DNA of 64,000 nucleotides from an uncultured Clostridia bacterium (lineage in GTDB: Bacteria > Bacillota > Clostridia > TANB77 > CAG-508): the NCBI GenBank assembly GCA_934182605.1, contig CAKPRQ010000002.1:44361-108360 (forward strand), in the 5' to 3' direction. Below the pieces are notes generated by a model that searched no databases, was not told where the DNA came from, and saw nothing but the letters and a program-made list of their open reading frames with translations. Below are positions 36,130-37,332 of the stretch, in pieces. The position numbers and the translations under genes are program-made. Within the stretch, counting starts at the first letter, position 1. Each line of letters begins with the position of its first letter.

Positions 36130-37332
36130 TTAGGACTCAGAGCTACTTATATAAAGCCCCACTCGAAAGCCGAGGTAAGGGAAGCTGTGGGCCACGTAGT
36201 GGGCGCCACGGTAAGAAGCTGGGTAGTCCGAGCCGGAATCGTCGTAACCGCCGCCCCTGATGACACGGTAAGTGCTATATTTTTCCATAGTCCACTCCCA
36301 TACATTACCAGCCATATCGTAGATATTTTTTTGTCTGAATGCATCTAATAGACCACAAGTGGCTGGAGTAGCAGTGGTTATATCGCCACCACTTGTTCCA
36401 CTATAATTTCCCATTCCTGTTGAATTTGTTGCATAAGTATCATATCCATTTTCTCCAACATTATATGAACCTATAAATCTTAATGCTGTATCCCATTGCG
36501 TTCCATATATTAATGTTGATATTGCTCCATAATTTGTATCTTCTTTTGGATACATACTTCTCGCCACTGTTACTGCTCCATTTCCTGGTGTTGTTTCATC
36601 ATTAGTACCGCTTTCGCTCCATTTTATATTATTCCATACTGTCGCACCTCGTTTTGATACTGGTTTTACACTTCCATCTGTTTTTAATGTTACGCCATCT
36701 GGCTTTCCAGCTTCAAATCTTGCTATATAAAATCCTTGGTTATTTGTTATACTTGTTGAAATTTCTGATGGTACTGTTTCTGAGCAACTAGAAAGGTTTA
36801 ATCCTTTTCCAAAATCATATCTACCAAATGTTACATTAGTCCCATCCACTGGCACCCATACAAATTCATTTCCTGTACTATTTCCACTTCCATCAACTGC
36901 ATCTGTTATTACTAATCCTTTTTGATATCCTTCTTCACTTCCCCACGTTGCATTATTTTCATTTACCGGTGCAAATCCTTTTGGAATTATTGGATTATTA
37001 TATGTTCCTGTTGCTTGTCCATCAAATGTTTTATTTTCATTCACTATCTCTCCTATTGTTGCTCCGCCTGCTGGTGGATTATTTTCTTCATCATCTACAT
37101 TCCCTAAATAATTATCAATTTCATTCATTAAAGTTTTAATTTTGTCTGCTTCATTTCTTGCTGCATTTTCATAACTTTCTGTTGCTTGTCTTGTTCTATT
37201 AAACAATCCATTACCATCTACTATCGCTGCTATTGCAACTCCTGCTAATATCAACATTACGACTACCGTGATAACTAAAGCAACTAGGGTTATTCCTTCT
37301 TGTCTTCTACTATTTTTTGTAAATTCTTTCAT
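36130..37332 (-). CDS. pilin-like N-terminus fused to a formylglycine-generating-enzyme (FGE)/SUMF1-EgtB-PvdO-family domain
   Basis: N-terminus ...QEG|ITLVALVITVVVMLILAGVAIAAIVDGNGLFN is paralogous to the pilin at 17282..17509. C-terminal motifs GNVWEWT...RVIRGGGY...GFRV are diagnostic of the FGE-sulfatase family. 400 aa. Confidence 0.65.
   Translation of the reverse strand: MKEFTKNSRRQEGITLVALVITVVVMLILAGVAIAAIVDGNGLFNRTRQATESYENAARNEADKIKTLMNEIDNYLGNVDDEENNPPAGGATIGEIVNENKTFDGQATGTYNNPIIPKGFAPVNENNATWGSEEGYQKGLVITDAVDGSGNSTGNEFVWVPVDGTNVTFGRYDFGKGLNLSSCSETVPSEISTSITNNQGFYIARFEAGKPDGVTLKTDGSVKPVSKRGATVWNNIKWSESGTNDETTPGNGAVTVARSMYPKEDTNYGAISTLIYGTQWDTALRFIGSYNVGENGYDTYATNSTGMGNYSGTSGGDITTATPATCGLLDAFRQKNIYDMAGNVWEWTMEKYSTYRVIRGGGYDDSGSDYPASYRGAHYVAHSFPYLGFRVGLYISSSES

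Follow-up and report, generated by a model that had tools for sequence, protein, structure and literature searches.

Diversity-generating retroelements (DGRs) are, to our knowledge, the only system of targeted protein hypermutation in prokaryotes. Their density is highest in the human gut, and the published work that we know of ties them to phage tail fibres and to the tips of Bacteroides type V pili. Here we focus on a gene at 36130..37332 (−) of a 64,000-nucleotide (nt) stretch of DNA from an uncultured human-gut Clostridia bacterium (contig CAKPRQ010000002.1; hereafter the window). According to the listing of open reading frames (ORFs), the gene has an ATG start and encodes 400 aa; the product is a modular pilin that carries a hypervariable C-type-lectin (CLec) module of the formylglycine-generating-enzyme (FGE) type, and it is probably the remote target of such a retroelement. 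In Wu et al. 2018 (PMC5758913), targets with a variable region (VR) of the FGE-sulfatase CLec1 type form the largest category of DGR targets; in the accessible part, the motifs described as appended in 13 FGE-sulfatase target architectures include no pilin motif.

The closest described systems share one part or another with this gene. TvpA (Treponema denticola variable protein 1, 2Y3C) and TaqVP (Thermus aquaticus, 5VF4) are DGR variable proteins with the same FGE-type C-type-lectin fold, at 17–20% identity; TvpA, however, is a lipoprotein whose template repeat (TR) and reverse transcriptase (RT) are known, whereas the window protein starts with a pilin module and its TR and RT were not found. 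The tip adhesins of Bacteroides type V pili (Macadangdang et al., PMC11601372) likewise come from the gut and likewise hold a DGR-variable C-lectin domain on a pilus subunit, but they belong to a different phylum, are exported as lipoproteins and assembled by strand exchange (the window protein has a predicted type IV, class III signal peptide), and were studied within DGR loci, many of them on integrative conjugative elements or prophages, whereas the target described here is chromosomal and remote from any cassette. The modular pilins PilB (with a von Willebrand factor A module) and PilC (with a lectin module) of Streptococcus sanguinis (PMC8179133) likewise come from a monoderm with a type IV pilus operon and also consist of a module grafted onto an N-terminal pilin; the window protein differs from them in that it has no globular pilin head and no Glu5 and that its module is probably hypermutated by a retroelement.

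The fusion of a pilin with an FGE-type domain, which the first-pass annotation of this DNA took to be undescribed, has in fact been catalogued: Dataset S1 of Raynaud et al. 2021 (PMC8179133) lists the architecture IPR012902-IPR005532 (pilin motif plus sulfatase-modifying factor) with eight proteins, among 264 modular-pilin architectures. A survey from 2024 names a 'GspG-type pilin' among the rare VR-holding domains, without comment (PMC11661182). The component parts (FGE-type CLec targets, modular pilins, DGR-diversified type V pilus adhesins and cassettes that combine a MutS_I-like (MSL) gene with Avd) are all known; the link between the catalogued architecture and DGRs is new in the literature that we searched, in which we found no report of retroelement hypermutation of a modular type IV pilin and no paper that describes type IV pilins, or the Clostridia family at hand, as diversified by DGRs. 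A paper on TANB77 pilins (PMC11680825) was considered as a description of the same system and set aside: it concerns a Tad-type cluster.

The putative VR lies at 36154..36300 (−), with a core of variable codons at 36172-36270 (aa 355-387); Trp345 (36298-36300) is also variable across the family. The final ∼170 nt of the gene have a GC content of 57–59%, against 26.9% for the window, and almost every codon there is of the type NNC (tac, gac, ggc, tcc, cac, gcc, ttc and ctc). In an alignment of 28 homologs the body of the protein is conserved and the C-terminus is scrambled from GNV[W]EWT onward. Column entropy across 100 homologs exceeds 3 bits at positions 355, 358, 362, 364, 365, 370, 376-379 and 382-387; these positions hold 12–17 residue types each, beside the invariant R359, G360, R375 and F389.

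Comparison between strains sharpens this picture. In a second strain, which comes from another gut sample of the Hadza (L078), the syntenic locus encodes the ortholog P0002 and is 97.9–99.9% identical to the window over 21 kb, whereas 24 differences fall within the 97 nt of 36174-36270. All but one of these (23 out of 24) are at positions 1 or 2 of NNC/NNT codons, the remaining one being TCG versus TCA; 16 of the resulting codon changes are nonsynonymous and one is synonymous. The invariant backbone of the VR is retained without any change in a third allele (L082), which stems from another metagenome. The three alleles together have 27 variable sites, of which 26 are at codon positions 1–2 and 23 show A in at least one allele, whereas the invariant positions are only 11% A. 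As judged from these alleles, the pattern is one that adenine-specific mutagenic retrohoming leaves when the template has AAC codons, and that neither drift nor gene conversion produces; the 25% divergence of the VR, in strains with ∼99% identity elsewhere, argues for diversification that is very recent at the least. A VR of the DGR type would also explain why the FGE fold is found here, as FGE-type CLec domains are the commonest class of DGR targets.

Other observations concern the same part of the protein. The exact protein sequence, or a version that differs at residue 88, is found on contigs from the human gut, in samples from the Hadza and in others. The window protein and its ortholog are separated by an indel or recombination patch at aa 291-300. 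About 40% of the close homologs, including the paralog P0007 from the same genome, end in RFSC.ALYKV...PKEKRSN rather than in GFRV.LYI; this alternative end (L091 ∼11150-11215; also L002, L003 and L004) arises at the 3′ end of the VR, where a T-run and an A-run each have a 1-nt insertion; both reading frames retain an F...LY pattern. Homologs with the RFSC end may be functional variants, off-states or pseudogenes.

Downstream of the VR, ∼65 nt beyond the stop codon, is an inverted repeat with a 13-bp stem and a 5-nt loop (36036..36066, −), after which comes the palindrome GGGGTACCCC (36021-36030). The 141-nt stretch that contains this hairpin (36000-36140) has a folding energy of −23.1 kcal/mol (z = −4.1 compared with shuffled sequences), and the hairpin is conserved downstream of the paralogous VRs in L091 and L002. 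Its loop is CTTCA in the window and the exact reverse complement, TGAAG, in the ortholog L078 (AGAAG in the paralog L091) while the stems are unchanged, as expected of a palindrome that forms a cruciform. No T-run follows the hairpin at 36036-36066. It is a candidate for a DGR target-site hairpin or cruciform, or for a terminator.

The variable residues are hosted by a C-terminal globular module (aa ∼96-395; 36148..37047, −) whose C-type-lectin fold is of the FGE subtype. That the protein has an FGE-sulfatase domain had been proposed from its motifs (GNVWEWT, RVIRGGGY and GFRV, all present), and Pfam agrees: PF03781 matches with 28.1 bits (gathering cutoff 23.3; E = 1.9e-6), over aa 290-391 only, that is, positions 131-253 of the 255 of the profile, its C-terminal half. 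AlphaFold2 (AF2) gave a pLDDT of 83.8 with an alignment of 100 sequences (38.8 with 28 sequences), with blocks above 90 across aa 90-400 except for aa 311-320 (63) and 331-340 (87). The closest structures to the module are TaqVP and TvpA; FGE and EgtB are also among the fold matches. However, the catalytic Cys pair of FGE (C336 and C341 of the human enzyme, which bind Cu(I)) is not present: the last Cys is C326 and there is none in aa 327-400, the positions that correspond to the pair are hypervariable in the family, and the best match by sequence in PDB is the non-catalytic paralog SUMF2. Because no Cys follows residue 326 and the pair is absent, the sequence argues for a lectin-like binding scaffold rather than an enzyme, in line with a guess made in the first-pass annotation that the module only binds. 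The analogies drawn there with GldJ, GldK and PvdO fared less well. The NCBIfam model for GldK (TIGR03525) gives 20.4 bits against a cutoff of 350, so that the protein is far from the GldK/PorK group; it has no lipobox and its N-terminus is pilin-like, whereas GldJ, GldK/PorK and PvdO are lipoproteins or periplasmic proteins, belong to diderm machines and are not hypervariable.

This protein belongs to a large family: at least 2636 relatives were found among the 8000 candidates scored, nearly all of them unnamed metagenome proteins. All 370 matching stretches in species-representative genomes come from metagenome-assembled genomes (MAGs) of uncultured Clostridia or Bacillota from guts. The N-termini of the relatives share a pilin-like motif (GITLIALVITIIV / GISLIVLVITIIV). 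Members are frequently found many to a genome, some as tandem arrays; one MAG has more than 20 family genes, about a dozen of which show the NNC-codon pattern. Among the relatives is P0006, a 310-aa fragment that is 97% identical and appears in UniRef as a 'type II secretion system protein' of Methanobrevibacter smithii; it probably stems from a contaminant contig in an archaeal assembly.

One family member has its retroelement at hand. The member in L073 shares 30% identity with the window protein across residues 4-396, and its N-terminus is the same (SGITLIALVVTIIVLLILAAV). Its cognate TR is 136 nt long and differs from the VR by 23 mismatches, 21 of which are at TR adenines, and genes for a MutS_I-like protein, Avd and RT adjoin the VR and TR. 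This cassette places at least one member of the family directly among DGR targets. L016 and L095 share the order of the L073 cassette, with Pfam matches to bAvd, RVT_1 and MutS_I; the conserved arrangement (target, MutS_I-like, bAvd, RT, TR) is found at 11639-13700 of L016, 4693-6600 of L073 and 3787-5830 of L095. These loci match the MSL + Avd class of DGR cassettes of Wu et al. 2018 (PMC5758913); the window, by comparison, has only the target. The TRs of L016 and L095 were rejected as cognate to the adjacent VRs: they are not collinear with the adjacent family members, and their cognate VRs must therefore lie elsewhere. In all three loci the cassette is followed by a highly conserved non-coding stretch of ∼80 nt (TTCTAGATTATATATTTTAAGGAATATATACA...).

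The other end of the window protein, the pilin module (aa 1-77; 37102..37332, −), consists of a basic leader, MKEFTKNSRRQEG, which ends in Gly, a hydrophobic alpha-1N segment of 23 residues, ITLVALVITVVVMLILAGVAIAA, and an amphipathic helix. The AF2 model shows two long helices here (residues 11-35 and 43-77); the module is a helix of ∼65 residues only, without a globular pilin head. Its profile matches in PDB are the N-termini of Geobacter PilA-N (9egp/7tgg, E = 0.02–0.04), PilA and MshA. The near identity to a pilin of the window's type IV pilus operon, which the first-pass annotation had pointed out, is confirmed by BLASTP: residues 11-76 are identical at 47 out of 66 positions (71%, E = 1e-27) to residues 4-69 of the 75-aa short pilin encoded at 17282..17509 (−), of which the module is a near copy, and along the stretch GITLVALVITVVVMLILAGVAIAA(I/V)VDGNGLFN a single residue separates the two proteins. 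This 75-aa protein, presumably the major pilin of the operon, amounts to about one helix, and its best similarity in PDB is likewise to Geobacter PilA-N.

The module is widespread. A search with the first 80 residues reaches 18,027 representative clusters at E ≤ 1e-3, of which 329 also pass E ≤ 1e-10. The 150 matches listed come from proteins of 57 to 929 aa, and the match starts within the first ∼60 residues in all except P0183. The module heads stand-alone pilins of ∼75 aa as well as fusions with GLUG motifs, Gp10_C, FGE/CLec and many unknown modules; together these make up a large repertoire of modular pilins, in agreement with the concept put forward by Raynaud et al. 2021 (PMC8179133). 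One of the Gp10_C fusions is encoded in the same genome as the pilin-FGE gene.

The pilus operon (11829..20355, −) lies 16 kb from the gene, as had been stated in the first-pass annotation; it is complete and includes a prepilin peptidase. Pfam identifies in it PilC/T2SSF (11829-13178), a PilT-like T2SSE (13200-14291), PilB with T2SSE and MshEN (14306-15934), the prepilin peptidase N-domain PF06750 (A24_N_bact; 16397-17146) and, weakly, PilN. The operon further includes the 75-aa pilin and PilO/N/M-like genes, among them a PilM/N-like gene at 18703-20355; a 145-aa pilin-like protein is encoded at 15953-16390. A peptidase domain, two T2SSE and one T2SSF are thus found together within 11829-17146, and this operon presumably processes and assembles the fusion protein.

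Taken together, we consider it probable that the gene encodes a pilus-displayed adhesin, namely a modular type IV pilin that carries, behind a short linker, a DGR-diversified lectin-like head, which is diversified in trans by a remote cassette. An error-prone RT would copy the remote TR and randomise its adenines, and the cDNA would overwrite the last ∼35 codons of the module, so that ∼17–20 NNC codons for surface residues would be rewritten while scaffold codons and third positions stayed fixed. The prepilin peptidase would presumably cleave after Gly13, and the cleaved protein would enter the pilus through its pilin helix, most likely at the tip in view of the bulk of the ∼300-residue head; a tip position for a head of this size would also fit by analogy with S. 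sanguinis PilB. The pilus would then display an ever-changing ligand-binding face, that is, a diversifiable adhesin and not an enzyme.

Several results weigh against this reading, some on the side of the pilus and others on the side of the retroelement. As for the pilus, the Pfam family N_methyl (PF07963) is below threshold in the fusion protein (16.1 bits against a gathering score of 21.2), Glu5 is missing (G|ITLVA, with Ala at +5 of the predicted mature sequence), and Pfam detects only the N-terminal domain of the prepilin peptidase. The N-terminus could accordingly be an uncleaved signal-anchor that holds a variable lectin domain on the membrane or wall instead of on a pilus; the gene is located outside the pilus operon, and lipoproteins and membrane-anchored proteins are common among known DGR targets (PMC5758913). 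We regard this as possible but unlikely. The similarity to the pilin runs 40 residues past the hydrophobic segment, over the whole 66 aa, for which a plain anchor would have no use, and many other fusions, like the stand-alone pilins of ∼75 aa, begin with this module. Moreover, the operon pilin also lacks Glu5 (its N_methyl score, 20.6 bits against 21.2, is below threshold as well), as do distant family members (GISLIV), so the system as a whole is without this residue. That neither the operon pilin nor any module-bearing protein has Glu5 points to a putative, atypical Glu5-less class of type IV filaments in these Clostridia.

As for the retroelement, neither a TR nor an RT was found for this genome, of which ∼85 kb was searchable, 84 kb of it around the pilin-FGE locus. 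Direct repeats within the 64-kb window yielded no TR, and an A-tolerant ungapped sliding search of both strands of the window returned the self-match only. A regular expression for RT motifs, applied to the window and to all loci, and tblastn with the RT, Avd and MSL of L016 detected no DGR RT in the window, and neither TR nor RT is found in the 10 kb past the left edge of the window or within 10 kb of the same-genome paralog. Searches beyond this genome relied on the VR backbone and on the predicted TR sequence, ACTAACCGTGTCAACAGGGGCGGCGATTACGACAATTCCGGCTCAGACAACCCAGCTTCTTACCGTAACAACAACAACGTGGACAACAGCAACCATAACATCGGCTTTCGAGTG. The backbone pattern has no match in viral contigs and 11 in JGI metagenomes, none of them a TR: one is an additional VR allele and the other 10 are matches by chance. 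Compared with the protein collection, the peptide predicted for the TR in frame retrieved nine TR-encoded small ORFs of related elements (e.g. NRVNRGGNYNNSGSNNPASNRNNNN) but none of this genome, and the other five frames, used as protein queries, had no match. A strict-threshold A-tolerant search within each of 79 loci (96 VRs) found no TR, and missed that of L073, whose motif differs; a self-BLAST screen of all loci for A-biased repeats gave L073 only. An RT at 7930-9280 of L004, considered as a DGR RT, was rejected, as it is a group II intron RT/maturase (YADD); it sits in CALXUC01, the closest reference MAG, ∼700 nt upstream of one of the family's genes.

Two further points belong here. The paralog from the same genome (P0007, L091) has a GC-rich VR of the NNC type with the same length as that of the window, but the two VRs show a few non-adenine differences (GGC/GGT, GCT/GCC and CGT/CGC), so that one TR cannot currently homogenise both. 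The hairpin downstream of the VR, AT-rich, with a loop of 5 nt and ∼65 nt past the stop codon, is unlike the characterised phage examples, which are GC-rich, have a 4-nt loop and are 4–34 bp from the VR (PMC3240598).

The main rival that these results raise is a relic VR: the gene would be a former DGR target whose TR and RT have been lost, and its C-terminus would now be static and strain-specific. Besides the missing TR and RT, which were found nowhere within reach, and the paralog VR backbones that are not homogenised, this would fit the finding of one and the same VR sequence in two versions of the protein (residue 88) and in the assemblies from several samples. However, only ∼85 kb of the genome could be searched, strains with 98–99.9% identity in the flanks show differences at 25% of the VR positions, and the VR has kept its foreign GC-rich NNC composition with no drift to the codon usage of the host, whereas the paralogs in L093 do look decayed. 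A relic is, in our judgement, decidedly unlikely.

Another alternative is that the pilus displays an active FGE enzyme or a fixed binding module, and that what varies is its expression, through slippage of homopolymers in the promoter. The PF03781 match and the presence of FGE and EgtB among the fold matches would agree with this, as would the upstream tracts. The private upstream/promoter region (∼205 nt; 37333..37537, −), which is co-duplicated with the gene, has a T8 tract at 37349-37356, a T7 tract at 37358-37364 and a T9 tract at 37504-37512; poly-T tracts had been reported in the first-pass annotation as candidate sites of slipped-strand phase variation, and they are indeed there, though at coordinates that had to be corrected and with a T9 in place of the claimed T10. 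Tracts of at least nine T are rare (two in the 64 kb). However, none of the three tracts differs in length between the window, the ortholog L078 and the same-genome paralog L091, the region differing by point changes only, and the T9 tract is also identical in the third lineage, L082. Identical lengths across the copies compared give no evidence of slipped-strand phase variation, and we consider this alternative very unlikely. Gene conversion from paralogs in the manner of pilE/pilS, in place of a retroelement, could be suggested by the several paralogs per genome (some in tandem), by a duplicated 3.65-kb module and by the patch at aa 291-300, but it can practically be dismissed: third-position and backbone differences of the paralogs have not been imported among the three orthologous alleles, and conversion would neither restrict changes to positions 1–2 of fixed NNC codons nor deplete A at invariant sites.

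The neighbourhood of the gene is as the first-pass annotation described it, with a repeat upstream (37543-37656) and an AAA-ATPase/PD-(D/E)XK gene downstream. The latter (33907..35589, −) encodes 560 aa with Pfam matches to AAA-ATPase_like (PF09820) and PDDEXK_9 (PF08011); between it and the pilin-FGE gene is a 56-aa ORF (35728-35898, −) without a Pfam match, which shows 100% conservation in both L082 and the paralogous module. Together with the ∼205 nt upstream these genes form a 3.65-kb module (33907-37537) that is present twice in the genome with 92% identity, the second copy being at 9797-13441 of L091; the duplication boundary is at 9796 of L076. A third copy of the ATPase (85–89%; L091 18196-21214) follows the 252-aa Gp10_C modular pilin, which has the same promoter and pilin N-terminus as the pilin-FGE gene. 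Copies of the ATPase are better conserved than their cargo genes (95% versus 71% in L093). We considered the ATPase as an obligate partner of the family and rejected this: apart from this lineage, only one related MAG, CALXUC01, has it next to family members, and it is therefore not a general partner. Its co-duplication may reflect how the modules were duplicated, and the gene could take part in the spread of target modules within the genome. The ATPase of the window shares 98.8% identity with its counterpart in L078, as against only 96% with the one in L076 (11744-13423), whereas the pilin-FGE protein of L076 differs from that of the window by one residue; this mismatch hints at recombination between the copies of the ATPase, or else at chimeric assembly of the repeat.

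The repeat upstream of the gene is one copy of a dispersed palindromic intergenic repeat (core AAATCGTGATATATAGCTATTT plus an inverted partner) that resembles REP or MITE elements. Copies are found at 6081-6183, 9169-9301, 37543-37656, 43420-43522, 45063-45105, 49927-50055 and 60150-60282; the one next to the pilin-FGE gene is shortened in the window and complete in the ortholog L078. Elsewhere in the window, an 824-aa ORF (51939..54413) contains four to five tandem repeats of 42 nt (68–100% identity) at 52932-53141.

These findings suggest that the logic of DGRs has been applied to the type IV pili of uncultured gut Clostridia, with a pilin as the carrier of a hypermutable lectin head and with many target copies per genome, most of them remote from the retroelement. 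The pilin-FGE protein would be the first reported retroelement-diversified type IV pilin subunit, the pilE/pilS system of Neisseria working by recombination instead. We tentatively propose, as a possibility somewhat short of an even chance, that gut Clostridia hold large repertoires of type IV pilus tip adhesins and that a single MSL-Avd-RT-TR cassette on the chromosome rewrites their heads in trans; if so, such a repertoire would be the type IV pilus counterpart of the DGR system of Bacteroides type V pili. Since DGR surveys require a VR beside the RT, a system with remote targets would be missed, and as a major metagenome survey is by its own statement unable to detect remote targets (PMC8144416), this family of at least 2636 members could be largely uncounted. 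Its members are candidates for the attachment of uncultured bacteria to changing host, dietary or microbial ligands.

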